Virus record (IMG/VR): IMGVR_UViG_2711768066_000004
Location: 1 to 24,518 of that record
Origin: a virus
Lineage: Duplodnaviria > Heunggongvirae > Uroviricota > Caudoviricetes
Reading direction: 5' to 3' (one strand)
Length of the DNA stretch: 24,518 bases
The notes under the pieces were generated by a model. It had not been told where the DNA came from. It saw only the letters and a program-made list of their open reading frames with translations, and ran no database searches. This document shows, piece by piece, positions 7,249 through 24,518 of the stretch (positions within the stretch are counted from its first letter, which is position 1; every line of letters starts with the position of its first letter). Made by a program: the position numbers and the translations under genes.

Positions 7249-7270
7249 CTGTTCTGACGGATGAAGAATC

Positions 7271-7471
7271 ATGATCCTGAAACAAGATCTGAAATGGTCA
7301 CCGGACGGTATGCGTGTTGAGGTCATTCGGGCCGGTGAGTATGACGACGGGGCGCTGCCTGCCCGGGTGCAGGAGATTGCACTTCAGGCCGGGTTAGCAG
7401 AGCGCGGAACCAGTGCAAAAAGCAGTAAAGCGGCAAAAGAGAAAAAAGCCACGACCAGTAAAGAGGGCTGA
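7271..7471 (+). CDS. Hypothetical small head-associated protein with lysine-rich C-terminus
   Basis: 66-aa ORF in the correct orientation between capsid and connector genes; weak SD. Confidence 0.4.
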   Translation: MILKQDLKWSPDGMRVEVIRAGEYDDGALPARVQEIALQAGLAERGTSAKSSKAAKEKKATTSKEG

Positions 7472-7473
7472 GT

Positions 7474-8685: not shown

Positions 8686-9242
8686 AACTGACGCCTGTTA
8701 TTGCTGCGCTGCGTGCCCGCTGCCCGTATTTTGAAAACCGGGTGGCAGGCGCGGCACAGTTCAAAAATCTGCCGGAGGTCGGAAAGCTGAGACTCCCGGC
8801 GGCGTATGTGGTACCGGGTGATGACTCTCCGGGAGAAAACAAAAGCCAGACCGACTACTGGCAGGAGCTGAAAGAGGGCTTCTCCGTGGTTGTCATACTG
8901 AGTAACGGGCGTGATGAGCGCGGTCAGTTTGCTTCGTATGATGTGGTGGACGATGTCCGGCAGATGCTCTTTAAGGCCCTGCTGGGCTGGAACCCGGAGG
9001 CGTGCGGTAACCCGATTACCTATGACGGCGGCACGCTGCTGGATCTGAATCGTCATGAGCTGATTTATCAGTTCGATTTTTCGGTCATCAGCGAGCTGAC
9101 TGAAGACGATACCCGCCAGCAGGATGATCTGAACAGTCTGGATGAACTGCAAACGCTGGCGATTGATGTTGATTATCTCGAGCCCGGTAACGGGCCTGAC
9201 GGCGATATCGAACATCACACCGAAATAACCCTTCCTTCCTGA
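8682..9242 (+). CDS. Neck / tail-completion (sheath terminator-like) protein, Mu-type
   Basis: 186 aa; ATGA overlap with the upstream gene; position immediately before the small pre-sheath ORF and the sheath gene. Confidence 0.45.
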   Translation: MKLTPVIAALRARCPYFENRVAGAAQFKNLPEVGKLRLPAAYVVPGDDSPGENKSQTDYWQELKEGFSVVVILSNGRDERGQFASYDVVDDVRQMLFKALLGWNPEACGNPITYDGGTLLDLNRHELIYQFDFSVISELTEDDTRQQDDLNSLDELQTLAIDVDYLEPGNGPDGDIEHHTEITLPS

Positions 9243-9250
9243 GGATCCTC

Positions 9251-9418
9251 ATGTTTGTCAAACCTGTTAAAGGGCGGTCAGTTCCTGATCCTGCCCGCGG
9301 CGACCTTTTGCCCGCCGAAGGGCGAAATGTTGACGAGAACAACTACTGGCTGCGCCGTGAAGCAGCGGGTGATATCCGGCGCGTGAATAAAAAGGTGAAC
9401 ACCGATGACGATAAGCTT
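9251..9418 (+). CDS. Small conserved pre-sheath protein (55 aa; not in the supplied ORF track because it is under 60 aa)
   Basis: Read directly from sequence as ATG..TAA, MFVKPVKGRSVPDPARGDLLPAEGRNVDENNYWLRREAAGDIRRVNKKVNTDDDKL; overlaps the sheath start. A small ORF at this position is common in Mu-like tail clusters. Confidence 0.45.
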
Positions 9419-10901
9419 TAACACCATTCCGTCGAATACGCTGGTTCCGCTGTTTTATGCGGAAATGGATAACCAGGCGGCGAATACTGCACAGGACAGC
9501 GGAGCATCGCTGCTGATTGGTCATGCCAATAACGGTGCAGAGATTGTTGCCAACAGTCTGGTACTGATGCCGTCGGCAGACTATGCACGCCAGATTTGTG
9601 GTGCGGGAAGTCAGCTGGCGCGTATGGTCGAGGCTTATCGCCAGACCGACCCGTTTGGCGAGCTGTATGTGATTGCCGTTCCTGAATCCACAGGCGCGGC
9701 GGCAACGGTTACGCTGACGGTGACCGGGGAGGCAACCGAAACCGGCACGGTGAATGTCTATGTGGGACGTACCCGCGTGCAGGCTCCGGTGACCAACGGC
9801 GATAACGTCACGACGATTGCCAGCAGTATCAAAGATGCCATCAATGCCGTTCCGGCCCTGCCGTTTACGGCTTCATCTTCGGCAGGCGTGGTCACACTGA
9901 CCGCGCGTCATAAGGGGCTTTGCGGGAATGAAATTCCTGTCAGCCTCAATTACTACGGCTTTGGTGGGGGCGAAGTGCTGCCAGCGGGCGTACAGATTGC
10001 CGTGGCGACGGGTACCGCCGGTACGGGTGCTCCTGTTCTCACCGGCGCGGTGGCTGCAATGGCGGATGAGCCGTTTGATTATATCGGCCTGCCGTTCAAC
10101 GACACAGCCTCCGTTAACACGCTGGTGACCGAGATGAACGATACCAGCGGTCGCTGGAGCTATGCGCGTCAGCTGTATGGTCATGTGTATACGGCAAAGA
10201 TCGGCACGCTGTCAGAACTGGTGACCGCAGGTGACCAGTTTAACCAGCAGCACATTACCCTGGCGGGATACGAAAAAGAGACCCAGACGCCTGCCGACGA
10301 GCTGGCGGCAAGCCGTACCGCCCGCGCAGCGGTGTTTATCCGCAACGATCCGGCACGTCCCACGCAGACCGGTGAGCTGGTGGGTATGCTGCCTGCGCCG
10401 AAGGGGAAACGGTTCACGATGACCGAACAACAGACCCTGCTGTCTCATGGCGTGGCAACGGCGTATGTCGAAAGCGGGGTACTGCGCATTCAGCGTGATG
10501 TCACCACGTACAGGAAAAACGCTTACGGGGTTGCGGATAACAGCTACCTCGACAGTGAGACACTGCATACCAGCGCGTATGTACTGCGCAAACTGAAATC
10601 CGTCATTACCAGTAAGTACGGGCGTCACAAGCTTGCCAGTGACGGTACCCGCTTTGGTCCCGGTCAGGCGATTGTCACCCCGGCGGTGATCAAAGGGGAA
10701 CTGCTGGCAACCTACCGTCAGCTTGAGCGTGCGGGGATCGTGGAAAACTACGAACTGTTTAAGCAGTACCTGGTTGTGGAGCGTGATGCCAGCGATCCGA
10801 ACCGCCTGAACACGCTGTTCCCGCCTGACTATGTTAACCAGTTGCGTGTCTTTGCCGTGGTTAACCAGTTCCGTCTTCAGTATTCAGAGGAGTCTGCATA
10901 A
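9405..10901 (+). CDS. Contractile tail sheath protein (Mu gpL-like)
   Basis: 498 aa; AAGGTG SD; followed directly by a 118-aa tube gene with TAATG overlap; size and order fit the Mu L/M pair. Confidence 0.85.
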   Translation: MTISFNTIPSNTLVPLFYAEMDNQAANTAQDSGASLLIGHANNGAEIVANSLVLMPSADYARQICGAGSQLARMVEAYRQTDPFGELYVIAVPESTGAAATVTLTVTGEATETGTVNVYVGRTRVQAPVTNGDNVTTIASSIKDAINAVPALPFTASSSAGVVTLTARHKGLCGNEIPVSLNYYGFGGGEVLPAGVQIAVATGTAGTGAPVLTGAVAAMADEPFDYIGLPFNDTASVNTLVTEMNDTSGRWSYARQLYGHVYTAKIGTLSELVTAGDQFNQQHITLAGYEKETQTPADELAASRTARAAVFIRNDPARPTQTGELVGMLPAPKGKRFTMTEQQTLLSHGVATAYVESGVLRIQRDVTTYRKNAYGVADNSYLDSETLHTSAYVLRKLKSVITSKYGRHKLASDGTRFGPGQAIVTPAVIKGELLATYRQLERAGIVENYELFKQYLVVERDASDPNRLNTLFPPDYVNQLRVFAVVNQFRLQYSEESA

Positions 10902-11257
10902 TGGCCCGTATCGGGGGAACCTGTTATTTCAAAATTGACGGTCAGCAGCTATCGCTGACCGGTGGCATTGAGGTGCCCATGAACAGGACGGTCAATGATG
11001 ACATCATCGGCCTGGACGGTTCAGTGGACCGCAAGGAAACTCACCGTGCGCCTTATGTCAAAGGGACCTTCAAGGTGCCGAAGAATTTTCCGGTGGGCAA
11101 AATCACCTCGTCTGATGAGATGACAATCACTGCCGAGCTGGCGAACGGTCAGGTCTATGTACTGTCGTCTGCCTGGCTGCACGGCGAAGCGAACCATAAT
11201 GCCGAAGAAGGCACGGTTGATCTTGAGTTCCACGGTGAAGAAGGGGATTACCAGTAA
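10901..11257 (+). CDS. Tail tube protein (Mu gpM-like)
   Basis: 118 aa; translationally coupled to the sheath gene; conserved position. Confidence 0.75.
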   Translation: MARIGGTCYFKIDGQQLSLTGGIEVPMNRTVNDDIIGLDGSVDRKETHRAPYVKGTFKVPKNFPVGKITSSDEMTITAELANGQVYVLSSAWLHGEANHNAEEGTVDLEFHGEEGDYQ

Positions 11258-11526
11258 TGAAAGAGCTTGAGTTAAAGAAACCGATTACTGCTCATGGCGA
11301 GACACTCTCCGTACTGGAGTTTGATGAGCCCACCGGGAAGGATGTCCGCGAGCTGGGGTATCCCTACCAGATGAATCAGGATGAGTCCGTCAGACTTCTG
11401 GCGCATGTGGTGTCGAAATACATTGTGCGGCTGGCGAAAGTGCCGCAAAGCTCTGTCGACCAGATGTCTCCGGCAGACCTGAATGCAGCGGCGTGGCTTG
11501 TGGCCGGTTTTTTCCTCCAGGCCTGA
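11257..11526 (+). CDS. Tail assembly chaperone (G-like, zero-frame product)
   Basis: 89-aa ORF between tube and tape measure; contains the slippery heptamer T_TTT_TTC near its 3' end. Confidence 0.7.
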   Translation: MKELELKKPITAHGETLSVLEFDEPTGKDVRELGYPYQMNQDESVRLLAHVVSKYIVRLAKVPQSSVDQMSPADLNAAAWLVAGFFLQA

Positions 11527-11675
11527 CGGCTGAATACCTCACTGATCGCTTCTTTGACTGCGCCAGCTACTGGCGCATTAATCCTTTCGAATTGCTGAAT
11601 ATGCCGATCAGTGAAATTCCCTTACTGGTCAGTCAGGCAAACAGGATAGAGCAGGAGAAACGCACACATGGCTGA
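11257..11675 (+). CDS. Tail assembly chaperone, -1 frameshift-extended product (GT-like)
   Basis: A -1 slip at 11508..11514 joins the 11257 frame to the frame of ORF 11493..11675 (...RFFPPGLTAEYLTDRFF...), ending at a TGA overlapping the tape-measure start. Confidence 0.6.
11508..11514 (+). promoter_or_regulatory. Programmed -1 ribosomal frameshift slippery site TTTTTTC
   Basis: Heptamer T_TTT_TTC in the zero frame (GGT TTT TTC), 10 nt before the chaperone stop codon; the -1 frame is open for 54 more codons. Confidence 0.6.
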
Positions 11676-13500
11676 ATTTGAGCTTAAGGCGTTGATCACC
11701 GGTGTCGACAGGCTTTCTCCCGCGCTGTCGAAAATGCAAAAGAAAATCCGGGGATTTAAACGCCAGGCGGAAGAAGCGTCACAGGGTGGGCTGGCGCTTG
11801 GTGGCGGACTGGCAGCGGGTCTGACGCTTTCCCTGAAATCTTATGCCGATCAGGAAAACGCCGCCACCGGGCTGAAAGTCGCCATGATGGATGCGAACGG
11901 CGAGGTTGGAAAGAGCTTTCAGGACATCAATAAACTGGCTATTGGCCTGGGTAACCAGCTACCCGGTACAACGGCTGATTTCCAGAACATGATGCAGATG
12001 CTGGTGCGTCAGGGGATCCCGGCAGAAAACATTCTTGGCGGTGTTGGTAAAGCGACAGCTTATCTTGCGGTACAACTGAAAAAAACACCGGAAGCGGCTG
12101 CCGAGTTTGCCGCAAAGATGCAGGATGCTACCGGAACGGCGTCAGAAGACATGATGGGGCTGTTCGACACTATCCAGAAGGCGTTTTATCTGGGCGTTGA
12201 CGATACCAACATGTTGTCCTTCTTCACTAAAACCAGCTCTGTTCTGAAGATGGTGAACAAGGACGGTCTTCAGGCTGCACAGAGCCTTGCCCCCATCAGC
12301 GTCATGATGGATCAGATGGGGATGAACGGGGAGTCGGCAGGTAACGCCCTGCGAAAAGTTATCCAGTCCGGATTAAGCGTTAAGAAAATCAGGGACGTCA
12401 ATAAAATCATGGCCCGCCAGAAACTCGGGGTACAGCTCGATTTTACTGACGGCAAAGGGAGTTTTGGCGGTCTTGATAACATGTTCAGGCAACTGGCAAA
12501 GCTGCGACAACTGACCGACGTTAAACGAACTGGTGTACTTAAGGCAATATTTGGTGATGATGCCGAAACCCTTCAGGTGGTCAATGCACTAATCGATAAA
12601 GGAAAGGATGGCTACGATCAGATCCAGCAGAAGATGAATAAACAGGCCAGCCTGAATAAACGTGTTCAGGCACAGCTTGGTACGCTGTCCAACCTGTGGG
12701 AAGCAATGACAGGGACCGCAACTAACGGCCTTGCGGCTATTGGCGGTGCATTTTCTGGTGACGCTAAAAATATCACGCAATGGCTGGGGGAGTTGGGGGA
12801 GAAATTCACGAAGTTTGCGGATGAAAATCCCCGGGTTATTCGCGGCGTCGTCGGGCTTGCTGCCGGTCTTGCGATTCTGAAACTGGGATTGATGGGCGTT
12901 GGCGGTGCCATCAGTATTGTCAGCAGGATCATGTCGATGACGCCGATTGGCATGATTGCGACGGCGATAGCCCTGGCTGCGGGATTAATTATCACTAACT
13001 GGGATGTTGTCGGACCTTATTTTAAGAAACTCTGGGAAACCATTGGTCCTTATTTTGAGGCTGGCTGGGAACTCCTTAAGAAAGTTTTTGCCTGGTCGCC
13101 GCTGGGGATGGTGATCAATAACTGGGGGCCGGTTGTTAAGTGGTTTCAGGATATGTGGGACAAGCTGAAGCCAATTATTGAGTGGTTTACCGACAGTTCC
13201 GGTGACACGGTCGATGCCATTAACTCTGCGCAGTGGGGCGCGGGTGCTTATGATGCTTATGGGACGGGAATACCGGCGCGGGGATACACACCTTATCCGG
13301 CGGTGGATCTGGCTCAGTCAAACAACGCCTCCGATGCCACAGCCCCGAATCCCTTCATGATTAACAAAGCTTCTGCGCCAAAAGTTGATGGTGAGATCAA
13401 GGTCTCTTTTGTGAATTCGCCTCCGGGTATGCGGGTTATGGAAACACGTTCTAGTGACATTGATATTAATCACGATGTTGGGTACACCAGATTTAGGTAA
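11668..13500 (+). CDS. Tail tape measure protein
   Basis: 610 aa, helix-rich with a hydrophobic/Gly-rich segment (GVVGLAAGLAILKLGLMGVGGAISIV) and a W-rich C-terminal region; AGGAGA SD; follows the frameshifted chaperone pair. Confidence 0.85.
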   Translation: MAEFELKALITGVDRLSPALSKMQKKIRGFKRQAEEASQGGLALGGGLAAGLTLSLKSYADQENAATGLKVAMMDANGEVGKSFQDINKLAIGLGNQLPGTTADFQNMMQMLVRQGIPAENILGGVGKATAYLAVQLKKTPEAAAEFAAKMQDATGTASEDMMGLFDTIQKAFYLGVDDTNMLSFFTKTSSVLKMVNKDGLQAAQSLAPISVMMDQMGMNGESAGNALRKVIQSGLSVKKIRDVNKIMARQKLGVQLDFTDGKGSFGGLDNMFRQLAKLRQLTDVKRTGVLKAIFGDDAETLQVVNALIDKGKDGYDQIQQKMNKQASLNKRVQAQLGTLSNLWEAMTGTATNGLAAIGGAFSGDAKNITQWLGELGEKFTKFADENPRVIRGVVGLAAGLAILKLGLMGVGGAISIVSRIMSMTPIGMIATAIALAAGLIITNWDVVGPYFKKLWETIGPYFEAGWELLKKVFAWSPLGMVINNWGPVVKWFQDMWDKLKPIIEWFTDSSGDTVDAINSAQWGAGAYDAYGTGIPARGYTPYPAVDLAQSNNASDATAPNPFMINKASAPKVDGEIKVSFVNSPPGMRVMETRSSDIDINHDVGYTRFR

Positions 13501-13507
13501 AGACGAA

Positions 13508-13529
13508 CAGGGAGGGCCGCCCCTCCCTG
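13508..13529. terminator. Bidirectional terminator hairpin (CAGGGAGGG-CCGC-CCCTCCCTG) between convergent tape-measure and moron genes
   Basis: Perfect 9-bp stem with 4-nt loop, 8 nt after the tape-measure stop and 4 nt after the minus-strand moron stop. Confidence 0.55.
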
Positions 13530-13532
13530 AAC

Positions 13533-13979
13533 TTACTGTGCGAACACGCAATTTCGGCCTGATGGGGAGCCGACAATTCTGGACATTTTTTCGCAAATAA
13601 CAGTTACCTGTTCTCCTTTTTTAAGAGCAGCAGCTGTTGATTTTTCAGAGTCTTGCATCTCCATTCTTGCTGGCATGAATTCATTTTCAGTTCTGAATTT
13701 AATAATTATAGAGTCAGTAAAGTCCTTATCAATGGATTGTACGATACCTCTAACGGCGATTAATTTACCTTTTAACTGTTCATCGGTAGCGACTTCATTT
13801 TCTTCATACTCTTTAAACAGCTGTCGAGCAGTAGTGTTGTAGATTTCTTTTTGCGGTGCCGCAGCTTCCGTATCGGATGAGTATGAAGAATTAGAGCCTT
13901 TATCGTTATTGCCTGCAAAATATCCAATAATCACCAACCCGATGAAAATATATAAAATCCATTTTAATAATTTCTTCAT
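13533..13979 (-). CDS. Moron: membrane-anchored protein with N-terminal TM/signal-anchor, Ser-rich linker and a C-terminal domain that looks OB-fold-like (tRNA_anti-like type, recalled by eye)
   Basis: 148 aa, MKKLLKWILYIFIGLVIIGYFAG...; very low GC; opposite strand to all flanking phage genes; AAGGTG SD 6 nt upstream of the ATG; own AT-rich upstream region and downstream hairpin. Confidence 0.75.
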   Translation of the reverse strand: MKKLLKWILYIFIGLVIIGYFAGNNDKGSNSSYSSDTEAAAPQKEIYNTTARQLFKEYEENEVATDEQLKGKLIAVRGIVQSIDKDFTDSIIIKFRTENEFMPARMEMQDSEKSTAAALKKGEQVTVICEKMSRIVGSPSGRNCVFAQ

Positions 13980-14089
13980 GTTATCACCTTAATGCTAATA
14001 ATTTATATAGTTACAAATGGTAATGGCTACCACTACAAATTATGGCATTACCAGTAAATATTACTACTGATAATAAATATGGGACTTAT
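13980..14089 (-). promoter_or_regulatory. AT-rich upstream region of the moron; putative sigma70 promoter
   Basis: About 110 bp of roughly 25% GC with TATAAA/TATATA-like -10 candidates on the minus strand; exact -35/-10 pairing not resolved by eye. Confidence 0.3.
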
Positions 14090-15418
14090 ATGACGTGGAA
14101 AGACAGACTTCAGGATGCGTCATTTCGCGGCGTGCCGTTTAAGGTTGAAGAAGAAAGTGCGGGAACCGGTCGTCGTGTGGAAACACATGAATACCCGAAC
14201 CGCGACAAACCCTATACCGAAGACCTGGGGAAAATCACTTTCCGCCCGTCCATCACGGCTTATGTGGTGGGAGATGACTGCTTTGACCAGCGTGATCGCC
14301 TGATTGAAGCGCTGAATAAACCCGGTCCCGGCACGCTTGTCCACCCGACATACGGTGAGGTGAAAGTCTGTGTTGACGGGGAAGTCCGGGTCAGCACATC
14401 GAAGAGTGAAGGGCGTATTGTCCGCTTTGACCTGAAGTTTGTCGAAGCGGGAGAACTCTCTTACCCCACATCAGGCGTGGCGACGGCGCAGACGCTGATG
14501 TCATCCTGTTCTGCACTGGATGACTGCATCAGTGACAGCTTCAGCGGTTTCAGTATCGATGGCGTGGCGGATTTTGTGCAGAACGACGTTATCGGTAATG
14601 CCAGCACAATGCTTGGGTATGTTTCTGATGCGATGAAAGTGGTGGATTCTGCTGTATCGGATGCCGCCAGGCTGTTGCAGGGGGATATCTCGGTACTTCT
14701 GCCGCCGCCATCGTCAGGAAAAAATTTCGTTGAGCAGGTGCAGAAAATGTGGCGTACCGGTAAACGCCTTTATGGTAACGCCAGCGACCTGGTCACCATG
14801 ATCAAAATGCTTTCCGGTGTCAGCCTCGGCAGCGATTTGCAACCGCGCGGCGTCTGGAAAACGGACAGTAAAACCACCGCCACAGCGACGCAGCAGCGTA
14901 ACGTGGTTGCCAGCACTCTTCGTACGACTGCAATCAGCGAAGCGGCGTATGCCGTCACACGATTGCCTGCGCCAACAACTCCCGCGGTGATGCAGAATGC
15001 CGCAGTGGGGCAGTCAACAACACCCGCGCAGAGCACCGGCTGGCCTTCCGTCACGCATCCGGCACTGAACAATGCACCTGCGGTGAAAAACACGGTTGAC
15101 CTGCCAACGTGGGAAGAACTGACCGACATTCGCGACACACTGAATACGGCAATTGATAAGGAGTTGTCCCGTACAACCAGTGATGCGCTGTTTCTGGCGC
15201 TGCGCCGGGTGAAAGCAGATCTGAATGCGGATATCAACACGCGCCTTGAACAGTCTGCGCGGATCATTCAGCGCACGCCGGATGAGGTTTTACCCGCGCT
15301 GGTGCTGGCGGCGACCTGGTTTGATAACGCGGCGCGTGACGTGGACCTTATCCGGCGTAATGCTATTACGCATCCCGGCTTTGTGCCGGTGATCCCTCTG
15401 AAGGTGCCAGTGCAATGA
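14090..15418 (+). CDS. DNA circularization protein (Mu gpN-like)
   Basis: Contains WKDRLQDASFRGVPFKVEEE near the N-terminus; position after the tape measure. Start placed at 14090 because the first 16 codons of the 14042 ORF have moron-like AT-rich composition. Confidence 0.7.
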   Translation: MTWKDRLQDASFRGVPFKVEEESAGTGRRVETHEYPNRDKPYTEDLGKITFRPSITAYVVGDDCFDQRDRLIEALNKPGPGTLVHPTYGEVKVCVDGEVRVSTSKSEGRIVRFDLKFVEAGELSYPTSGVATAQTLMSSCSALDDCISDSFSGFSIDGVADFVQNDVIGNASTMLGYVSDAMKVVDSAVSDAARLLQGDISVLLPPPSSGKNFVEQVQKMWRTGKRLYGNASDLVTMIKMLSGVSLGSDLQPRGVWKTDSKTTATATQQRNVVASTLRTTAISEAAYAVTRLPAPTTPAVMQNAAVGQSTTPAQSTGWPSVTHPALNNAPAVKNTVDLPTWEELTDIRDTLNTAIDKELSRTTSDALFLALRRVKADLNADINTRLEQSARIIQRTPDEVLPALVLAATWFDNAARDVDLIRRNAITHPGFVPVIPLKVPVQ

Positions 15419-16494
15419 ACGACAATGTCACGCTACGGGTAAATGGCCGGGAGTGGAATGGCTGGACATCGGTGCGCATCGGTGCCGGTATTGAACGGCT
15501 GGCACGGGATTTCAGTATGGAGATCACCCGCCAGTGGCCGGGAGATGAGGGTATCACCACGCTTCAGCCGCGTATTAAAAACGGTTCAAAAGTGGAAGTT
15601 CTGATTGGTGATGAGCTGGTGATCACCGGCTGGGTGGAGGCGACGCCCGTTCGTTACGATGCCCGTTCGGTCAGCACCGGTATTGCCGGACGCAGTCTGA
15701 CCGCTGACCTGATTGACTGTGCAGCCGAACCGACACAGTTTAACGGACGATCGCTGGTACAGATTGCGCAGGCGCTTGCTGCGCCTTTCGGCATTGAGGT
15801 GGTGAACAACGATGCGCCGTCGGGTGTTATTCCGGATGTCCAGCCTGATCACGGCGAAACGGTGATCGAGGTGATCAACAAAATACTCGGTCAGCAGCAG
15901 GCACTGGCTTACGACGACCCGCACGGCAGGCTGGTGATTGGCGGTATTGGCTCAACGCGGGCACATACCGCGCTGGTACTTGGGGAAAACATCCTTTCCT
16001 GTGATACGGAGAAGAGTATCCGGGAGCGGTTTTCAGTTTACCAGGTGGCGGGGCAGCGTGCCGGAAATGACGATGATTTCGGTGAGGCCACCACCACCGC
16101 GCTGCGGGCCCGCACAGAAGACGCATTTATTGCCCGTTACCGTCCGATGTATATCAGGCAGACAGGGCAGGCTACGGGGGCAGGCTGTATTGCCCGTGCG
16201 GACTTTGAAGCCCGGCAACGGGCGGCGCGGACGGATGAAACCACCTATGTGGTGCAGGGCTGGCGACAGGGTAACGGTACGCTGTGGCAGCCCAACCAGC
16301 GGGTGATTGTCTTCGATCCTGTCTGTGGTTTCGACAATACCGAACTGCTTGTCTCGGAAGTCACGTTTACTCAGGACCAGAACGGCACCCTGACGGAAAT
16401 CCGTGTCGGCCCACCTGATGCTTATCTGCCTGAACCCGAAGCCCCCGGCGCGCGGAAAAAGAAAAAAGCCAGAGTACAGGAGGACCCGTTCTGA
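15415..16494 (+). CDS. Baseplate hub protein (Mu gpP / gp44-like)
   Basis: 359 aa; ATGA overlap with the gpN-like gene; conserved Mu order. Confidence 0.7.
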   Translation: MNDNVTLRVNGREWNGWTSVRIGAGIERLARDFSMEITRQWPGDEGITTLQPRIKNGSKVEVLIGDELVITGWVEATPVRYDARSVSTGIAGRSLTADLIDCAAEPTQFNGRSLVQIAQALAAPFGIEVVNNDAPSGVIPDVQPDHGETVIEVINKILGQQQALAYDDPHGRLVIGGIGSTRAHTALVLGENILSCDTEKSIRERFSVYQVAGQRAGNDDDFGEATTTALRARTEDAFIARYRPMYIRQTGQATGAGCIARADFEARQRAARTDETTYVVQGWRQGNGTLWQPNQRVIVFDPVCGFDNTELLVSEVTFTQDQNGTLTEIRVGPPDAYLPEPEAPGARKKKKARVQEDPF

Positions 16495-17042
16495 TGAGGA
16501 CGATTGAAGCCATGCAGCGACAACTCCTCGGCCTGATTGGGCGGGCCGTGGTGAAAAGCATCAGTGCCGCCACGAAATGTCAGACCGTGGATGTGTCCCT
16601 GATTGCCGGTGAACCCAAAGCCGGGGTTGAACATCTTGAACCCTACGGTTTTACCGCAAGGGCAAACAGCGGTGCGGAAGCGGTGGTGTTGTTTCCGGAT
16701 GGCGATCGTTCTCATGCGGTGGTTGTTACGGTGTCGGACCGGCGCTACCGCCTGAAAGGGCTGCAGACGGGTGAGGTGGCTGTCTATGACGATCAGGGGC
16801 AGTCCGTGACGCTGACCCGGGAGGGGATCGTGGTGGACGGTGCAGGTAAAACGATCACGTTTCGCAATGCACCTGAAGCACGTTTTGAAATGGACCTTGA
16901 AGTGACCGGACAGGTGAAAGACCTGTGCGACTCCGGCGGCACCACCATGTCAGCGATGCGGCTTGCCTATAACGGGCATCGTCACAGAGAGAACGGTCAG
17001 GGCAGTAACACCGACAAACCTGATAAAGCGATGGAGGCATGA
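16494..17042 (+). CDS. Baseplate assembly protein V / spike (Mu gp45-like)
   Basis: 182 aa; translationally coupled; conserved Mu order and size. Confidence 0.6.
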   Translation: MRTIEAMQRQLLGLIGRAVVKSISAATKCQTVDVSLIAGEPKAGVEHLEPYGFTARANSGAEAVVLFPDGDRSHAVVVTVSDRRYRLKGLQTGEVAVYDDQGQSVTLTREGIVVDGAGKTITFRNAPEARFEMDLEVTGQVKDLCDSGGTTMSAMRLAYNGHRHRENGQGSNTDKPDKAMEA

Positions 17043-17467
17043 TGGAACTGTGGCTGACGGTGAACGGTAAACGCACCTGCGCCAGCGCACCGCTGGATCC
17101 GCTGACCCGCGCCGTGGTGATTTCCCTGTTTACCTGGCGGCGGGCGGAGCCTGATGACAATGCCGACGTCCCGATGGGATGGTGGGGGGATACCTGGCCT
17201 GCGGTACAGAATGACCGTTACGGCTCCCGACTGTGGCTGCTTCAGCGCAGCAAACTGACCAATCAACTGGTGCAGACGGTAAGGGGGTATATCCGCGAAT
17301 GCCTGCAATGGATGATTGATGACGGCGTGGTGTCCCGCATTGATCTGGATATCCGCCGCACCGGGATTAATGAACTGGGTAACAGTATCACTCTCTGGCG
17401 TCGTGACGGACCGGTAATGATTTCTTTTGATGATCTGTGGAGTGCGATAACGCATGGCGGACAGTGA
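17039..17467 (+). CDS. Baseplate protein (Mu gp46-like)
   Basis: 142 aa; ATGA overlap; conserved order between the gp45-like and J-like genes. Confidence 0.6.
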   Translation: MMELWLTVNGKRTCASAPLDPLTRAVVISLFTWRRAEPDDNADVPMGWWGDTWPAVQNDRYGSRLWLLQRSKLTNQLVQTVRGYIRECLQWMIDDGVVSRIDLDIRRTGINELGNSITLWRRDGPVMISFDDLWSAITHGGQ

Positions 17468-18512
17468 ATTTCAGCGCCCGACGCTGGCAGAAAATATCAG
17501 TATGCTCCGTAACGATTTATTCGCCAGGCTGGACGTCAGCGACACGCTCCGGCGCATGGATGAAGACGTGCGGGCAAAGGTGTATGCGGCGGCGCTGCAT
17601 ACGGTTTACGGTTACATCGATTATCTGGCAATGAACATGCTGCCTGACCTGTGCGATGAGTCCTGGCTGGCGCGACATGCTGCGATGAAACGGTGTCCGC
17701 GCAAGGGGGCCACGGCTGCCAGCGGGTATATGCGCTGGGAAGGTGTCAGCGATGGCCTGAAGGTGACCGCCGGGAGTGTTATTCAGCGCGATGACCTGGT
17801 TCAGTACACGGCAACTGCCGATGCAACCAGCTCCGGTGGTGTCCTGCGCGTGCCGATCGCCTGCTCAAGTGCAGGTGCGGTCGGTAACGCTGACGACGGT
17901 ACGGCATTAATCCTGGTCACGCCGGTGAATGGTCTGCCGTCTTCCGGTGTGGCTGACACCCTTACAGGCGGATTTGATACTGAAGAGCTGGAAACGTGGC
18001 GCGCCCGCGTCATTGAGCGGTATTACTGGACGCCTCAGGGCGGGGCTGACGGGGACTATGTCGTCTGGGCTAAAGAAGTGCCCGGCATTACCCGCGCATG
18101 GACATACCGTCACTGGATGGGAACGGGAACTGTCGGTGTGATGATTGCCAGCAGTGACCTGATTAATCCCATTCCGGAAGAATCAACGGAAACGGCAGCA
18201 AGACAACATATCGTGCCACTGGCCCCGGTGGCAGGCTCTGATTTGTATGTATTCAGGCCGGTGGCGCACAAAGTGGATTTTCATATCCGCGTGACGCCGG
18301 ACACACCAGAAATACGAGCCGCCATCACCGCGGAGTTGCGTTCGTTTCTTCTGCGTGATGGTTATCCGCAGGGAGAACTGAAGGTATCGCGTATCAGTGA
18401 GGCGATTTCCGGTGCGAACGGGGAATACAGCCATCAGTTGCTTGCACCGGCAGACAATATCTCCATTGCAAAAAATGAACTGGCGGTACTGGGGACGATT
18501 TCATGGACGTGA
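17454..18512 (+). CDS. Baseplate J-like protein (Mu gp47-like)
   Basis: 352 aa; conserved order and size. Confidence 0.75.
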
Positions 18513-19087
18513 CAAACGATGATTACATCCGTCTGTTGTCGGCACTGTTGCCCCCCGGTCCGGCGTGGTCAGCCAGCGATCCGGCGATTGCCGGTGCGGC
18601 ACCGTCATTAACCCGTGCTCATCAGCGTGCGGATGCCCTGATGCGGGAGCTGGATCCGCGCACCACCACCGAACTGATAAACCGCTGGGAGCGTCTGTGC
18701 GGCCTGCCGGATGAATGTATTCCGGCAGGGACGCAGACCCTTCGCCAGCGTCAGCAACGGCTGGATGCGAAGGTTAACCTGGCGGGTGGCATCAATGAGG
18801 ATTTTTACCTTGCGCAGCTTGCTGCCCTGGGCAGACCAGATGCCACCATCACGCGATACGACAAAAGCACGTTCACCTGCTCATCGGCCTGTACTGACGC
18901 GGTGAATGCGCCGGAATGGCGGTATTACTGGCAGGTCAATATGCCAGCTGCCACCAACACCACCTGGATGACATGTGGCGATCCCTGCGATTCCGCACTG
19001 CGTATCTGGGGGGACACCGTTATCGAGTGCGTGCTTAACAAACTCTGCCCGTCGCATACCTACGTAATTTTTAAATATCCGGAGTAA
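18503..19087 (+). CDS. Tail protein (Mu gp48 / YmfQ-like)
   Basis: 194 aa; precedes the tail fibre gene as in Mu and e14. Confidence 0.6.
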
Positions 19088-19090
19088 TCC

Positions 19091-20011
19091 ATGCATCGTA
19101 TAGACACGAAAACCGCGCAGAAGGATAAGTTCGGCGCGGGTAAGAACGGTTTTACCCGTGGTAACCCCCAGACCGGCACGCCTGCCACCGATCTGGATGA
19201 TGACTACTTTGACATGTTGCAGGAGGAGCTCTGCAGCGTGGTGGAGGCATCCGGTGCCAGCCTGGAGAAGGGGCGGCATGACCAGCTGCTTACCGCGCTT
19301 CGTGCGCTGCTGTTAAGTCGCAAAAATCCGTTTGGCGATATCAAATCGGACGGCACGGTGAAAACGGCTCTTCAAAACCTTGGTTTGGGAGATACAAGCG
19401 GATACGTGGGACGCCGGCTGAGTACCCGGGCTTTCGCGTCATCAGGTACGTATACCCCATCACCAGAAACAAAACGGATCAGGGTCACAATAACGGGCGG
19501 CGGTGGCGGTGGCTGCCAGGCTATATCCAGTAACGAAACGTTTTTCGGTGCTGGCGGTGGGGCCGGAGGGACAGTAATCACCATACTGACCCCGACACAG
19601 AATAGTTATCCTGTCACTATCGGCGCAGGTGGGGCCGGCGGCGTTGGTGCGACGAACGGCCTCAAGGGCGGTGATAGCTCGTTCGGATCGGTAATAGCCC
19701 CTGGTGGTGAAGGCGGCGGAAAAGTAGGAGTCACAAACACAAACGGCGGTAACGGAGGCGTACCGAATATTGGCGATATCCGCATCACTGGTGGAGATGG
19801 AGGCGACGGTCAGTCCGGGAATATCAGCGTCAGCGGTGAAGGCGGTGCATCGTACTGGGGAGGCGGTGGACGTGCAGGCGCTGGCGGTGGCGTTAGAGGC
19901 AGGGCATTTGGTTCAGGCGGAGGTGGTGCATACGATGCAGGTTATAGCGGAACCAGTATGACGGGCGGGAAAGGTGCTGATGGGGTTTGTATTATCGAGG
20001 AGTTTGCATAA
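19091..20011 (+). CDS. Tail fibre protein: constant N-terminal part (to about residue 97) fused to the currently expressed variable glycine-rich C-terminal part
   Basis: 306 aa; GGAG SD; the left crossover site lies in-frame inside the gene at the NLGLG motif; C-terminal two-thirds is Gly-rich ([21 protein letters not shown]). Confidence 0.8.
19371..19392. other. Left site-specific inversion crossover site (hix/gix-like), TTCAAAACCTTGGTTTGGGAGA
   Basis: Contains the palindrome AAACCTTGGTTT; an imperfect inverted copy is present at 21158..21180; resembles the Hin/Gin-family site consensus as recalled. Confidence 0.7.
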
Positions 20012-20421
20012 TGAATGCGTCATATGCAGTTATTGAAAATGGGATGGTTGTGAATGTCATTGTCTGGGATGGCGAGGATGAATTCACTGTGCCGGATAAT
20101 CTGCAGCTCATTAATATTTCTGATATCAGTGAGCAGCCCGGAATCGGCTGGGCGTATTCAGACGGGGTATTTACTGCGCCGCTCCCTCCGGAACGTTCTC
20201 ATGATGAACTGGTAGCTGACGCTGAACAGAAAAAACAGTCGTTGATAGACGCAGCAATGGTCAATATCAGCGTGATTCAGTTAAAGCTGCAGGCCGGGCG
20301 GAAGCTGACGCAGGCAGAAACCACCCGACTTAACGCCGTGCTGGATTACATTGACGCGGTGACGGCAACAGATACCAGCACTGCGCCGGATGTCATCTGG
20401 CCTGAACTGCCGGAGGCGTAG
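20011..20421 (+). CDS. Tail fibre assembly protein (currently expressed orientation)
   Basis: 136 aa; TAATG stop/start overlap with the fibre gene; GAGGAG SD; C-terminus (TSTAPDVIWPELPEA) resembles that of the convergent paralogue. Confidence 0.75.
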   Translation: MNASYAVIENGMVVNVIVWDGEDEFTVPDNLQLINISDISEQPGIGWAYSDGVFTAPLPPERSHDELVADAEQKKQSLIDAAMVNISVIQLKLQAGRKLTQAETTRLNAVLDYIDAVTATDTSTAPDVIWPELPEA

Positions 20422-20836
20422 GCCATTCAATATCTGGAGCACTGGAGGTATCAACCAGTTCCAGTGCGTCCAGATAATCCAGCCACAAATTATATTGCAC
20501 CAGTTCCTCACCTTTCAGACGACCAATTGATGCTTTACCTGGCCATTGTTTACTGTTGATGTATTCGTTGGCCTGATTAATCAATTGCTGCTTTTTAGTT
20601 TCGGCTGATGCAATTTGTTCTTCACGTGTTGGTGGAGGAATATCTACCCATGCAGGCAGTCCATCTTCTCCGACACATCTGTATTTTCCTTCTGGTGGTG
20701 TATCATAGAAATATTCCCTGAAAATTACTTCGTCTATATCAACACCTTTTTCTTCAGGCCACTCACCTTTTTCAACATAAAGAGACTTAAGTTCGTAAGG
20801 ATATGCCAGGTTGTTTACGTACAGATATTTCATCAT
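20393..20836 (-). CDS. Tail fibre assembly protein, alternative copy (expressed after inversion)
   Basis: 147 aa; convergent with and overlapping the other assembly gene by 29 bp; TAATG coupling to the silent fibre cassette. Confidence 0.7.
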   Translation of the reverse strand: MMKYLYVNNLAYPYELKSLYVEKGEWPEEKGVDIDEVIFREYFYDTPPEGKYRCVGEDGLPAWVDIPPPTREEQIASAETKKQQLINQANEYINSKQWPGKASIGRLKGEELVQYNLWLDYLDALELVDTSSAPDIEWPTPPAVQAR

Positions 20837-21210
20837 TACCAGCCCTTAGCGAAAAACGCACCACCTTCAAGACCATAATTGCAGTGAGCTATGAAGCCGG
20901 TAGTGCTCCAGTTGGTCGCCCCCCACATATTCCCACCCCCGAAACCACCATCGCACACAATTACAATGCCCGGTGTCTGTGTAAATGGAATCGGGAATGA
21001 AACATTGGCGGATACAGGCCCGTGTTCACTAGGAAAACTAATTCGTCCCCACTGTTCAATTGAACCATCTGGCATTTTTCGCCAGCCTGAACCTGATGCA
21101 TATGATGACATATCAGGTATCTGATTTTCCCCAGTTCCCACATTCCGTTTTGCCGCTTCTCCCAAACCAACGTTTATGAAGATGCAGAAATAACGAGCAA
21201 ATGGCATCAT
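20836..21210 (-). CDS. Silent alternative tail-fibre C-terminal cassette (promoterless in this orientation; only the part from about 21170 down to 20836 would be fused to the constant region after inversion)
   Basis: Minus-strand frame reads ...[20 protein letters not shown]... across the right crossover site, paralleling ...[13 protein letters not shown]... in the expressed gene; the Met at 21210 lies beyond the site and is probably not a native start. Confidence 0.6.
21158..21180. other. Right site-specific inversion crossover site (hix/gix-like), inverted copy
   Basis: TCTCCCAAACCAACGTTTATGAA is the reverse complement of the left site with about 2 mismatches; located about 57 bp upstream of the invertase start. 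Confidence 0.7.
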
Positions 21211-21236
21211 TCCTGCTTTTGTCAGGGGGAGCTACC

Positions 21237-21365
21237 ATGCTTATTGGCTATGTACGCGTATCAACAAATGACCAGAACACCGATCTACAACGTAATGCGT
21301 TGAGCTGTGCAGGATGCGAGCTGATTTTTGAAGACAAGATAAGCGGTACAAAGTCCGAAACCTAG
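21237..21365 (+). pseudogene. pin: Truncated Pin/Gin/Hin-family serine DNA invertase (first 41 codons only)
   Basis: MLIGYVRVSTNDQNTDLQRNALSCAGCELIFEDKISGTKSE matches the N-terminus of Pin/Gin invertases as recalled, then diverges (T, stop) exactly where composition switches to low GC. A full-length invertase is about 185-190 aa. Confidence 0.85.
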
Positions 21366-21412
21366 GGCTGACACTGCTGTTCTTGTTGCAAATTAAAGGA
21401 TTTAATAGTGAG

Positions 21413-21440
21413 TAGCGGCCTTACTAATGTAAAGCCGCTA
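21413..21440. terminator. Hairpin (12-bp stem with 1 mismatch, TAAT loop) between the truncated invertase and the convergent DUF262/DUF1524 gene; probable terminator of the latter
   Basis: TAGCGGCCTTAC-TAAT-GTAAAGCCGCTA, 21 nt beyond the minus-strand stop codon, flanked by A/T-rich sequence. Confidence 0.45.
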
Positions 21441-21460
21441 TAATCATTTTATTAATTGCA

Positions 21461-23410
21461 TTAATCGTGTTTTGGCCATACTTTCAATGCAATTTCCCCC
21501 AACTTTTTACCCCGCTCCAGGATTTCATCCTCATCCCATTTATCCTTAACTATAAGTGGAATGTTCAGTCGTAGATTGGTGTGGACGATGAGAGCATCAC
21601 GTTTTTTCAGAAATACAGCATTCTGAACAGAACGGTTTACGCTAAGGTTAAGCAAAGTTAGATTTCCCAACGTAGCTATCGCTTGTTGCCGTTTCCTTAC
21701 CAGTAGCTGTTCAGGGGTAAGATCGGTTCCAGACAGAACAATTTGGTTCAATACCGTAGCATCTGAATTTGTCACCATATGACCATTTTCGAGAGGCCAA
21801 CAGGAATACCAACTTTGAGGCATAAGATGATCGATATCGAGGTTAGAAAGATTTGGAACATCAGGCTTCTCTGTCTTCACTTGGCGACAAAGTTCTCTTT
21901 CAAGTTCCGTTAACATTGAGCGCATTTTCGGTGCGTCGAGCCTGCCAGGATAAAGTGGAGCATTGATGCAAGCGTTGAGAAATTCTGAGTCCCCAGGCCA
22001 ACGTGAGGCTTCGCCATTTAAGCTATTGAGGATATTACGTAACTCAACACTGGAAATTTCCGTTTTAGACAAGTGCCGCAATACATTCATAAATACATTG
22101 TTGTAATTCTTTGGCGTCAGGCCACATACGGCTCTTCGTACTACGTAGGAGACAAGATCATTATACATGGCTGCTTTCTCATCATCGGCGATGTTAGCTA
22201 TCGAAATGAACAAAGCAAGCGGATAAAGTGTCGTCACATCATAGGCTGCGATGCGATGTCCAAAGTGTGAGATGGGGGTTGTGCCAAAACCACCAACCAA
22301 TTCTTTATATTGTGATGCATATTGTTTGAGGCGCTTTACTTGCAGATCTGCTCGTTGTGAAGGCAAGTCCTTACTTACATAATCACGATACTCATTGTAA
22401 AGACGAGACAGATCGATTTCACGTTGCCTTTCTGATTGCAATGTCGCATGCACTAGCCACTCCATGCGTGGTTTATTAATACGACCACGACGTTGTCTTT
22501 CTGACCAGTACGTATCTTCAAAGATCTTCCACTCATTCTCATATAATTCAACAGCATTAATATTTTCATGTTCAGCGCACATAAAAATATAATTGCGAAT
22601 AAGATCTGTGGCATGAAGTTCCGCACCTCTGCCATTTAATGTTTCAAAAATTATTTGAGCGTCATCTTCAGCCTCGAGAAATATGCTTACTAGTTTCAGA
22701 TCCGTCAAGACAGCCTCAATTAATGCTACAGCATTTTCTCGTGGTGAGTGATTTTCTATTTTAATCCACTTTATAAAGGCTTCAGTAAAAAAACATAATG
22801 CTTCTAGTGATGGCGGGTGATTAAAATGCTTACGCAACGTACCATGCTGCGTGAAACTATCAGAGAATACATTCCGGATATCGTCAATATTTTCAACATT
22901 AAAACTTTGAATAAAATGAGTTTGATCCCGAAAAGTTGGCCACAGTTTGAAGCGCTCTACTTCTTTATTTCGCATTGTGTCTTCGTTTGAGTTTTTCAGG
23001 CAAGACGAAATGAGAGGCCCTAAGTTGGAAAGATCTGTCGCACGTAATGCTAATCGGATGGATGCCAGAACATATTGAAGAGTGGTCAATCGTTGCTGAC
23101 CATCAATAATATGTATGGAATCTACACCTAATAATCCTTTTTTTGGTTGAGGTTCCAGTACCACTGCACCAAGGAAATGGGGAGTTGGTTTTGTACCCGA
23201 GAGCCGGGATTGTGCTTTCTCTAGGATATCCTCCAGTAGAGCTGACCATTGGTTTCGCTGAGTCCATACATAGGCACGTTGATAGAATGGAACGCAGTAT
23301 TGTCGGCGGTCTTGAAAAAGTTGTTGGACAGTTAGCGTCTCGGATTTCATGGTATACCTGTAAGCGACATTGTACAAAAGTGAGGAGTTAATCTGATTTA
23401 GAACAATCAT
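21461..23410 (-). CDS. DUF262/DUF1524 fusion protein, GmrSD-family type IV (modification-dependent) restriction endonuclease-like
   Basis: N-terminal DUF262 hallmarks (VPFYQRAYVWTQRNQW and IIDGQQRLTTLQ); C-terminal DUF1524/His-Me-finger hallmarks (LDIDHLMPQSW, GNLTLLNLSVNRSVQN). Low GC. Likely true start is Met21 at 23350 (AGG 6 nt upstream and a TACAAT -10-like hexamer further up) rather than 23410. Confidence 0.8.
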   Translation of the reverse strand: MIVLNQINSSLLYNVAYRYTMKSETLTVQQLFQDRRQYCVPFYQRAYVWTQRNQWSALLEDILEKAQSRLSGTKPTPHFLGAVVLEPQPKKGLLGVDSIHIIDGQQRLTTLQYVLASIRLALRATDLSNLGPLISSCLKNSNEDTMRNKEVERFKLWPTFRDQTHFIQSFNVENIDDIRNVFSDSFTQHGTLRKHFNHPPSLEALCFFTEAFIKWIKIENHSPRENAVALIEAVLTDLKLVSIFLEAEDDAQIIFETLNGRGAELHATDLIRNYIFMCAEHENINAVELYENEWKIFEDTYWSERQRRGRINKPRMEWLVHATLQSERQREIDLSRLYNEYRDYVSKDLPSQRADLQVKRLKQYASQYKELVGGFGTTPISHFGHRIAAYDVTTLYPLALFISIANIADDEKAAMYNDLVSYVVRRAVCGLTPKNYNNVFMNVLRHLSKTEISSVELRNILNSLNGEASRWPGDSEFLNACINAPLYPGRLDAPKMRSMLTELERELCRQVKTEKPDVPNLSNLDIDHLMPQSWYSCWPLENGHMVTNSDATVLNQIVLSGTDLTPEQLLVRKRQQAIATLGNLTLLNLSVNRSVQNAVFLKKRDALIVHTNLRLNIPLIVKDKWDEDEILERGKKLGEIALKVWPKHD

Positions 23411-24223
23411 TTTATGTTGCTATGATACAACGTATTTGTTACCGGTTAAGTAAAAAACGCGTCTGAACGCTGACGTTTTAGGGCTTTACTAGTTATTCTT
23501 TCTTATCTCTTCATCATCCCATCGGCATCCTGTCGAGGGGTTGTTGACTTGTTGTTATTTATTTTGTTTAGGCGCTGTTTAATTATTATTGATGGGACTG
23601 GTGGTGAGAGGTGATTGAAACCGCAGACAGGTCGTATGCAAGACGTGCTGCGGTTGGCTGGTAAATGTTAGATAGTGCGAGTATTGAATGATTTCTAGCC
23701 GTTATTGATTTTACGTATTTTTGTATGAGAGGATTTGCATCTCCTGCCACCGACCCTCCATGACTTTACGCCACTGTCTCTAGGGCTGCTATGTGCCAGG
23801 AGCAGCCATTGCTAAGTCCATCCTGTATTGTGCAGGTCAGCTCGTTTTTAAAGAGTCCGGCCACCATCTTACTGGTACAGACACCATATACTTTGTGACG
23901 GTCAGGCTACATATGCACAACTCAACTTATTCATCTATTTTTTGCTTTAGCATGTCAGTGTTGCTTTCTCGTCGGCGGGTGAGCGGTGACCTGACCTGTC
24001 GATAAAGGAACGTAGCACGTTTTATGCAACACCCGCATGCGGCAGAAAATTATTGCCGAACGTTTACCCCTGTCAACAAGCTTTACTTTCTGAGGCGCGC
24101 CAGCCCGCGAGGAAAACAATCTGAACATCAAACAATTAATGACACAAGAAATACGATTAAAGATTTTTTTGTGCATGCCGATAGTGCTTTTTTAAAAGGA
24201 GAAATCTATGTCTGTCACAATTC

Positions 24224-24518
24224 GGTGATGCTGCCAACTTACTGATTTAGTGTATGATGGTGTTTTTGAGGTGCTCCAGTGGCTTCTGTTTCTATCAGCT
24301 GTCCCTCCTGTTCAGCTACTGACGGGGTGGTGCGTAACGGCAAAAGCACTGCCGGACATCAGCGCTATCTCTGCTCTCACTGCCGTAAAACATGGCAACT
24401 GCAGTTCACTTACACCGCTTCTCAACCCGGTACGCACCAGAAAATCATTGATATGGCCATGAATGGCGTCGGATGCCGGGCAACCGCCCGCATTATGGGC
24501 GTTGGCCTCAACACGATT
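24224..24518 (+). mobile_element. IS1: IS1 insertion sequence, partial copy (left terminal 295 bp; remainder outside the window)
   Basis: Begins with the IS1 terminal inverted repeat GGTGATGCTGCCAACTTACTGAT at 24224; exact inverted duplicate of the left-edge copy. Confidence 0.93.
24279..24518 (+). CDS. insA: IS1 InsA, N-terminal 80 codons (partial, runs off the window); GTG start
   Basis: Same translation as the left-edge copy; the track ORF 24250..24462 is an overlapping alternative frame. Confidence 0.85.

Follow-up and report, generated by a model that had tools for sequence, protein, structure and literature searches.

The window analysed here, a stretch of 24,518 nucleotides deposited as IMG/VR record IMGVR_UViG_2711768066_000004, is the late-gene block of an SfII/SfV/e14-like myovirus prophage of Escherichia coli, and toward its end it carries a tail-fibre cassette enclosed by two inverted crossover sites, the first codons of a serine invertase gene and a gene for a GmrSD-family restriction endonuclease. 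We find that the segment between the two sites has undergone recent and exact inversion in elements whose invertase gene is reduced to the same 42-codon stub. We consider it quite probable that the locus is a fibre switch of the Pin/e14 type that has lost its invertase to GmrSD and is still being inverted, most likely by an invertase from elsewhere.

A repeat search of the window returned an inverted repeat at 19375-19392 and 21158-21175, with identity at 17 of 18 positions. The 13-mer TTGGTTTGGGAGA is present in exactly two copies, one per strand, where 0.06 would be expected by chance, and the palindromic core AAACSWWSGTTT also occurs exactly twice (0.02 expected). Read as 26-bp sites, the left, pixL-like crossover site (19368..19393; CTCTTCAAAACC-TT-GGTTTGGGAGAT, core 19380-19381) lies within the fibre coding sequence (..NLGLGD..), and the right, pixR-like site (21157..21182; TTCTCCCAAACC-AA-CGTTTATGAAGA, core 21169-21170) agrees with the K-12 e14 site beside pinE at 25 of 26 positions and has the layout of Mu gixR. 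Once both are read in inverted orientation the TT and AA cores are identical, and the window thus holds two inverted, imperfectly palindromic 26-bp sites with the same central dinucleotide, as in the Din family (Hin, Gin, Cin, Pin), and only two such sites. The e14 repeat quoted in PMC12529663 is the same sequence as TTGGTTTGGGAGA, and both sites fit the consensus in Table 3 of PMC4134206. An earlier note, made from the letters of the window alone, had recognised two inverted hix/gix-like sites around about 1.79 kb; the repeat search, the exact-copy counts and the alignments with known sites bear this out, with the 26-bp sites reaching a few bases beyond the limits first given. Core to core, the invertible segment measures 1,791 bp (19380..21170), and the chromosome of E. 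coli ET474 contains its exact reverse complement (100% over 1,791 bp).

The comparison genomes were complete E. coli genomes, with inversion being read between genomes and not within one culture. ET474 corresponds to the window with its segment inverted in silico over 8,198 bp, with one mismatch and no gap, and strain T2 corresponds to the same inverted window with no mismatch and one 6-bp indel. Similarly, IHE3034 equals the UTI89 locus with the segment inverted in silico (100.000% over 8,874 bp). All of these carriers (ET474, strain T2, IHE3034 and UTI89) share the same stub and GmrSD gene, and ET474 and strain T2 have an identical stub, an identical GmrSD protein and the boundary with insertion sequence IS1 that is found in the window. 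Among genomes with this IS1 boundary, KTa005 is in the window orientation and ET474 and strain T2 are in the opposite one. For the UTI89-type cassette, 159 genomes match the UTI89-orientation junction over at least 80% of its length and 27 match the inverted junction at the same threshold, with 24 listed rows annotated as carrying stub and GmrSD; at 99.8% identity or above, at least 23 genomes combine the inverted junction with stub and GmrSD. The window-type cassette is found in the window orientation in 18 genomes, and three stub carriers match its inverted junction.

As in Din-family systems, then, the segment is found in both orientations with the exchange at the sites, here between genomes. 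Because relatives separated by no more than one substitution over more than 8 kb have opposite orientations, the flips must be very recent. Segments of 1,791 bp and of 1,797 bp are each seen in both orientations, which suggests more than one flip, though an indel in a repeat of glycine codons could recur. At both junctions 13 identical bases follow a C/G mismatch, and the exchange falls within these 13, which fits the prediction of cleavage at the central dinucleotide. Homologous (RecA-dependent) recombination is an unlikely source of these junctions, since 13 identical bp at the exchange are too few.

The exchange preserves the reading frame of the fibre gene. The constant N-terminal part of this StfP-type gene (19091..19379, plus strand, 96 codons; stfP in RefSeq) lies outside the segment, and in the window it is fused to a Gly-rich variable C-terminus, here called A (19382..20011, plus strand; Pfam Gly_rich_2, E=7e-14, residues 119-303), in a continuous open reading frame (ORF) from 19091 to 20011 that encodes a fibre of 306 amino acids. 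The assembly chaperone for C-terminus A (20011..20421, plus strand; Pfam Caudo_TAP, E=2e-21) starts in overlap with the fibre stop codon. Convergent with it is the chaperone for the alternative C-terminus B (20393..20836, minus strand; Caudo_TAP, E=2e-33), and C-terminus B itself is gp53-like (20836..21210, minus strand; Pfam Gp53-like_C, E=9e-8) and forms part of a 124-amino-acid ORF with a 13-amino-acid leader that starts outside the segment at 21210. When 19380-21170 is reverse-complemented in silico, the G-L-G codons stay in phase and the 306-amino-acid fibre becomes a gp53-like fibre of 207 amino acids: 206 amino acids follow the shared 100-amino-acid N-terminus (the constant part with the G-L-G motif) in one orientation, versus 111 after the 96-amino-acid constant part in the other. 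The conserved codon phase, the exchange of about 206 Gly-rich residues for about 111 alternative ones, and the two convergent assembly genes inside the segment had all been read correctly in the earlier note. The 207-amino-acid fusion is annotated as an intact protein in ET474 and strain T2, and both fusion products are annotated in natural genomes. The segment therefore provides in-frame alternative fibre C-termini, each with its cognate chaperone, as do fibre-switching members of the Din family.

Several smaller features of the cassette can be placed beside this arrangement. The 'headless' ORF at 20836-21210 has its start in the spacer that separates the right site from the stub, and from there it crosses the site and continues into the unused C-terminus. 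The leader of this ORF is also conserved in e14 of K-12, whose corresponding products are named StfE and StfE2. The 6-bp length polymorphism of the segment (1,791 versus 1,797 bp; loci L001, L004, L005 and L035) most likely lies in the tract of glycine codons at about 19499-19521. The continuous 306-amino-acid ORF is split by the Prokaryotic Genome Annotation Pipeline (PGAP) of RefSeq into a 'StfP pseudogene, missing C-terminus' and a 'glycine-rich domain-containing protein' (L001 6092-7018, equal to window 19091-20011), and the chaperone of C-terminus A is labelled 'incomplete'; both are annotation artefacts of the mosaic fibre. The 97% homology of the window to Shigella phages SfII, SfI, SfIV and SfV ends exactly at 19392, the end of the left site, and because it stops there the crossover motif also marks the boundary between the constant and variable modules of the fibre gene. 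SfII, the one of these four phages that was checked, has a single fibre with its chaperone and no invertible segment.

The gene that should supply the recombinase is cut short. Beyond the right site, a spacer (21183..21236, plus strand) leads to the invertase start, and alignments give a core-to-ATG distance of 67 bp, equal to that of Mu gin and K-12 pinE. The stub (21237..21365, plus strand) consists of 42 codons and a TAG, with the catalytic-serine motif YVRVST and nothing past codon 42, and 40 of its 42 residues are those of K-12 PinE. Protein homology to PinE holds through codon 41 and the DNA homology to pinE ends at about 21360, in agreement with the truncation after codon 41 claimed in the earlier note, the start codon now being corrected to the ATG at 21237. 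The stub covers only positions 2-48 of the 145 in the Pfam Resolvase model and has no helix-turn-helix domain; with the serine motif present and the protein ending at residue 42, neither a complete serine-recombinase catalytic domain nor a functional adjacent invertase with both domains is found. RefSeq labels it 'recombinase family protein, incomplete'. No C-terminal remnant of an invertase was detected elsewhere in the window by tblastn, and to judge from its length the stub is too short to be catalytically active. Insertion of GmrSD into pin, as opposed to replacement, was also considered and rejected, as tblastn found no 3' remnant of pin beyond GmrSD. A promoter and terminator scan of the stub region gave nothing meaningful.

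What the truncation has spared corresponds to the part of the gene in which Din-family systems hold their recombinational enhancer. The hin enhancer, an element of 65 bp, is located about 100 bp away from hixL; its two ends are Fis sites, and the stretch between them holds the AT-rich motifs ATTTA and TAATG (PMC3798978). For gin, the title of Kahmann et al. 1985, as cited in the same paper, places the enhancer 'within the invertase gene'. By homology, we predict a Fis-dependent enhancer at 21258..21321 of the window, with candidate Fis cores GTATCAACAAATGAC (21258-21272) and GTGCAGGATGCGAGC (21307-21321) and between them CGTAATGCG, which includes TAATG; the stretch corresponds to gene positions 22-85. 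GTATCAACAAATGAC is identical in the window, K-12 pinE, the invertase of a P2-like prophage and Mu gin, and GTGCAGGATGCGAGC is identical in K-12 pinE, with two differences in each of the other two. Over the whole of 21258-21321 there are three differences from K-12 pinE, and homology runs about 38 bp past the second candidate core before it breaks. We take the coordinates of the candidate Fis sites from the hin description and the hin sequence, with a register uncertain by 1-2 bp. The first candidate core is centred about 96 bp from the crossover core, close to the distance of about 100 bp given for hin (PMC3798978). All cis-acting parts known for the Din family thus appear to be retained: the two sites, the spacer, and some 125 bp at the start of the invertase gene. 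By homology, the stub may contain a working enhancer.

We propose the following course of events. A Pin/e14-type segment would have been resident where the late operon of an SfII/e14-like myovirus prophage ends, and there a serine invertase would cut both 26-bp sites at the central TT/AA and rotate the 1.79-kb segment, and this rotation would swap the Gly-rich C-terminus and its chaperone for the gp53-like C-terminus and its chaperone behind the same 96-amino-acid N-terminus. The GmrSD gene would then have replaced everything after codon 41 of the resident invertase, and because of this replacement the element could no longer make an invertase of its own. The parts acting in cis would have been kept, including the beginning of the invertase gene with its putative Fis enhancer, and inversion would have gone on after the truncation by means of a Din-type invertase from another prophage or plasmid in the same cell, which we regard as the most likely driver of the inversions.

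The earlier note had expected that the switch should be frozen unless an invertase acts in trans. The first part of this statement did not survive, since near-identical stub carriers are found in both orientations; its second part has become the supported reading, because the genome comparison contradicts the frozen default and because trans action has precedents (PMC12529663, PMC4134206). GmrSD in the place of the invertase, the overlap of the stub with the region in which this family has its Fis enhancer, and the wide distribution of the allele are additions to the earlier note. PinQ of Qin and PinR of Rac invert the e14 P segment in trans (Kirigo et al. 2025, PMC12529663), and the same paper cites Fin as acting on the Salmonella H segment and PinE as acting on the H and G segments. 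In the Phi4 prophage of EC958 the invertase is truncated and PacBio reads show both orientations, from which the authors conclude that inversion occurs in trans (Forde et al. 2014, PMC4134206). With these cases published, trans action is the natural explanation for the window as well. PinQ and PinR are 40% identical to PinE in our protein comparison. In ET474 the element itself is not the source: annotation reading and tblastn found no intact invertase in its 49-kb prophage region.

To survey potential sources, we used a blastn query made of a 1-kb GmrSD anchor and the 3' two-thirds of pinE, the P2-like invertase, gin and pinQ, and counted places as DNA matches, which does not imply that the genes are intact. 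All 60 of the 60 closest window-type chromosomes have between one and six further matching places (two in ET474, two in strain T2 and four in strain 127), and most of these genomes also have a pinQ-type 5' end, which ET474 does not. At least one match to the combined query is present in 5,042 of 5,426 E. coli genomes, and invertase-like DNA is therefore nearly ubiquitous in the species.

A number of findings weigh against continued inversion in trans. No intact invertase gene was located in any stub-carrying genome, and annotation reading and tblastn over about 250 kb of ET474 and strain T2 (the Rac, Qin and e14 attachment regions and the prophage neighbourhood) found no invertase. In both strains Rac and e14 are absent and the pinQ end of Qin is deleted or rearranged; ET474 has nothing at its Rac and e14 sites, and its Qin-like prophage has lost the pinQ end to IS1. 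With UTI89 as the anchor, about 27 of the 60 chromosomes listed that are of the sequence type 95 (ST95) kind show no invertase-like DNA besides the stub, and three of these (PMV-1, GN06489 and GN06758) have the segment inverted, yet the blastn search, which covered chromosomes, found no other invertase-like DNA in them. ST95-type carriers with no second match may at present have a frozen switch; other possibilities are an enzyme encoded on a plasmid, one that has since been lost, or one whose sequence is too distant for blastn to detect. As to the enhancer, the candidate Fis cores lie 49 bp apart, centre to centre, versus 47 bp for hin (PMC3798978), which makes the register of the candidate enhancer uncertain. 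The stub is also no more conserved than its neighbours, with 8.5% variable sites among seven stub alleles versus 3.6% in GmrSD, and there is no sequence signature of selection for an enhancer, because the variation is nearly all synonymous and shared with intact pinE.

This variation can be described more closely. Of the 11 variable sites of the stub, nine fall on the third base of a codon, and the other two are a synonymous change at a first position and a non-synonymous change; several of the variants are common to intact pinE alleles. The pattern points to exchange with intact pinE genes and not to selection on the stub, and the conservation comparison is neutral on enhancer function. A functional stub peptide, which the bias toward synonymous variation might bring to mind, was set aside as less parsimonious than polymorphism shared with intact pinE.

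One alternative is that the locus is a frozen relic: the source strain would have no compatible invertase and a fibre locked in the Gly-rich state, and relatives would show the other orientation because their segment was flipped in an ancestor or in a different host that did have an invertase. The inability of the stub to act as an enzyme, the roughly half of the listed ST95-type carriers without other invertase-like chromosomal DNA and the loss of e14, Rac and the pinQ end of Qin from ET474 all speak for it, and four IMG/VR loci (L026, L029, L031 and L037) that keep the right site, stub and GmrSD but have neither a left site nor stfP within 6 kb are truly locked, because the left site is gone. 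It is difficult to reconcile with flips as recent as those between near-identical relatives, and with the extra invertase-like loci in every one of the closest window-type genomes and across the great majority of E. coli. We regard it as unlikely for the window, at a small but real chance.

A very improbable alternative to site-specific inversion is that homologous recombination produced the two orientations, or that the entire cassette was replaced horizontally by that of another prophage with an intact invertase. The same Gly-rich/gp53 cassette does occur in a P2-like prophage with an intact 193-amino-acid recombinase, cassettes are evidently shuffled, with at least five C-termini adjoining the same stub, and the polymorphisms that the stub has in common with intact pinE alleles would suit such exchange. 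Against this, the sequence flanking the segment in the inverted copies matches the window exactly as far as the 26-bp sites, only 13 bp are shared at the left junction, and the cassette of the P2-like prophage reaches no more than 84-91% identity, compared with 100% for the ET474 segment. The possibility that the orientations are merely choices made by assemblers, which the many frameshifted genes in the ET474 and strain T2 annotations might suggest by pointing to error-prone long-read assemblies, is negligible. Exact junctions in each orientation are found in dozens of complete genomes that were produced independently, in different laboratories and on different platforms, and UTI89, IHE3034 and APEC O1, which were finished early, are among them. 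Assemblers are not misled by a repeat of 26 bp, and if a population were mixed, that in itself would be proof of inversion.

The allele in which the spacer and stub run into GmrSD is widespread. Of 5,426 complete E. coli genomes, 298 contain its junction, including UTI89, IHE3034, APEC O1, S88, NU14 and the type strain ATCC 11775. The chromosomal location and the fibre cassette vary between carriers, and at least five distinct variable C-termini adjoin the same right site and stub. UTI89, IHE3034, APEC O1 and S88 are all members of the ST95 clone. The exact 32-mer of the junction is found in 19 IMG/VR contigs and in none of the GTDB species-representative genomes.

The gene that stands in place of the missing 3' part of the invertase (21461..23350, minus strand) encodes a 629-amino-acid type IV, or modification-dependent, restriction endonuclease of the GmrSD family. 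Pfam places GmrSD_N (E=5e-34) and GmrSD_C (E=5e-20) on a single chain, and PADLOC assigns it to mREase_IV over its full length with 1438 bits, so that the N-terminal DUF262 GmrS part and the C-terminal, HNH-like DUF1524 GmrD part are joined in one protein as in other members of the family. The window protein is 96% identical to the UTI89 protein, which we take, assuming that the locus tags match, to be the characterised 'UT enzyme' UTI89_C2960. Similar to Eco94GmrSD and UTI89_C2960, the window enzyme is thus a single-chain GmrSD encoded at the same place in an SfII-like prophage. The UT enzyme and Eco94GmrSD cleave DNA containing glucosyl-hydroxymethylcytosine and restrict T-even phages (He et al. 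2015, PMC4437046). That paper notes that the GmrSD gene lies directly downstream of tail fibre genes in an SfII-like prophage; the words 'invertase' and 'recombinase' are both absent from its main text, and the stub and the invertible segment are not mentioned there. The slot just after the start, or the whole, of the invertase gene (21366-23410 in the window; relatives L007, L008 and L011) is a variable slot for defence genes. Where the invertase is intact, the same slot holds mcrA in K-12 e14 and in the induced phage vB_EcoM-689R6, and an ATP-dependent endonuclease gene in ET210.

The position of GmrSD beside the switch allows a speculative and rather improbable extension, in which the stub has been kept for its enhancer, giving a switch that acts only in cis and is set by the invertase of a co-resident prophage, and in which the fibre C-termini of defective prophages, including the product of the 'headless' ORF, mask receptors and so form a possibly phase-variable anti-phage module coupled to GmrSD. 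In e14, StfE2, the product of the 'headless' ORF read in from the invertase side, is reported to block adsorption of phage T2 (PMC12529663). If this reading were true, a receptor-masking module would stand in physical linkage with a type IV restriction enzyme that would likewise act against T-even phages, and in defective prophages such as this IS1-bounded one the switch might no longer serve the host range of a phage. Such a combination is seen in e14, with mcrA and the P segment, and again in the window, with GmrSD and a P segment.

The remainder of the window is in keeping with its assignment to the SfII/SfV/e14-like prophages. From about 1600 to 19392 it has 97% identity to SfII, SfI, SfIV and SfV, and near-identical E. 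coli loci annotated by RefSeq give the gene order terminase, portal, capsid, sheath, tube, tape measure, Mu-type baseplate (homologues of gp44-48), ymfQ and stfP; the late module is thus collinear and highly similar from the terminase to the N-terminus of stfP. The ymfQ gene, which is Mu gp48-like, lies directly upstream of the fibre gene (18503..19087, plus strand; Pfam Phage_Mu_Gp48, E=1.2e-26; YmfQ family protein in RefSeq). At the far end the block is bounded by an IS1 end (24223..24518), an exact inverted copy of window positions 1-296 (296 nt, 100%) that is annotated as IS1 in ET474. The two ends of the window are therefore inverted IS1 halves, and the IS1-bounded block is probably a whole short-read contig. 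An Rfam scan of 19000-24518 gave no matches.

The matching block of ET474 is found at thrW/proA and lacks the prophage's early and lysis genes. Because only the integrase and a few early genes are found beyond the left IS1, the prophage is defective in this lineage. A fragment of ydfV follows GmrSD at window positions 23788-24003, and in strain 127 flxA is found there too; in K-12, ydfV and flxA belong to the Qin prophage. The Qin-like prophage of ET474 and strain T2 is rearranged and lies beside IS1 or the bio region. The location of ydfV and flxA and the rearranged Qin-like prophage suggest IS1-mediated rearrangements between prophages.

What is new here is the widespread stub-GmrSD allele, the observation that its deletion spares the predicted enhancer region, and the evidence between genomes of repeated exact flipping. 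The mechanism of Din inversion, its action in trans and a case of a truncated invertase had already been published, and the understanding of Din-family inversion is unchanged. For annotation, this implies that a 'recombinase, incomplete' beside a fibre cassette does not mean that the cassette is fixed. About 5% of complete E. coli genomes carry the allele, with reference strains UTI89, IHE3034, APEC O1 and ATCC 11775 among them; the deposited reference sequences differ in orientation and hence in the fibre protein predicted, and PGAP mis-splits the in-frame fusion. The locus would also be a clean natural example of one mobile element depending on another for its site-specific recombinase, with the defence gene GmrSD occupying the slot after the invertase start in which relatives have mcrA or an ATP-dependent endonuclease.

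Among known systems, the element is homologous to the P segment of e14 and the G segment of Mu and works in the same manner. In e14 of K-12, with its invertase PinE, the order is the same: ymfQ, the constant part of stfP, a segment of about 1.8 kb that holds two C-termini and a convergent pair of tfa genes, the site, the invertase start and a type IV restriction gene. A short leader ORF that enters the segment from the side of the invertase is likewise common to both. The two differ in that e14 has the full 184-amino-acid PinE followed by mcrA, whereas in the window PinE is cut after codon 41 and GmrSD lies on the opposite strand; the window has a Gly-rich C-terminus, a domain that K-12 e14 does not have; and the SfII-like head and tail genes, lost from e14, are still complete in the window prophage. 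The K-12 system in which trans inversion was demonstrated (PMC12529663) has its cis invertase intact, unlike the window. The Gin/G system of Mu, the Cin/C system of P1 and the Hin/H system of Salmonella share with the window the 26-bp sites and the 2-bp core, and their enhancer region in the first ~90 bp of the gene corresponds to the candidate enhancer of the window. In Mu, the start of gin also lies 67 bp from the core, its sequence is conserved with the window down to synonymous positions, and the logic of fibre switching between S/U and S'/U' is identical. In contrast to the window, the Gin, Cin and Hin systems encode their own invertase, and Hin switches a promoter and not a fibre. The Phi4 prophage of EC958 (PMC4134206) resembles the window in having an invertase pseudogene beside an intact pair of 26-bp sites, with inversion observed. 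It is a different prophage, with a 3.1-kb segment and other site sequences, its truncation removes only the helix-turn-helix domain, and no restriction gene is reported in the vacated place; the evidence there is heterogeneity of reads within a culture, whereas for the window it is the comparison between genomes.

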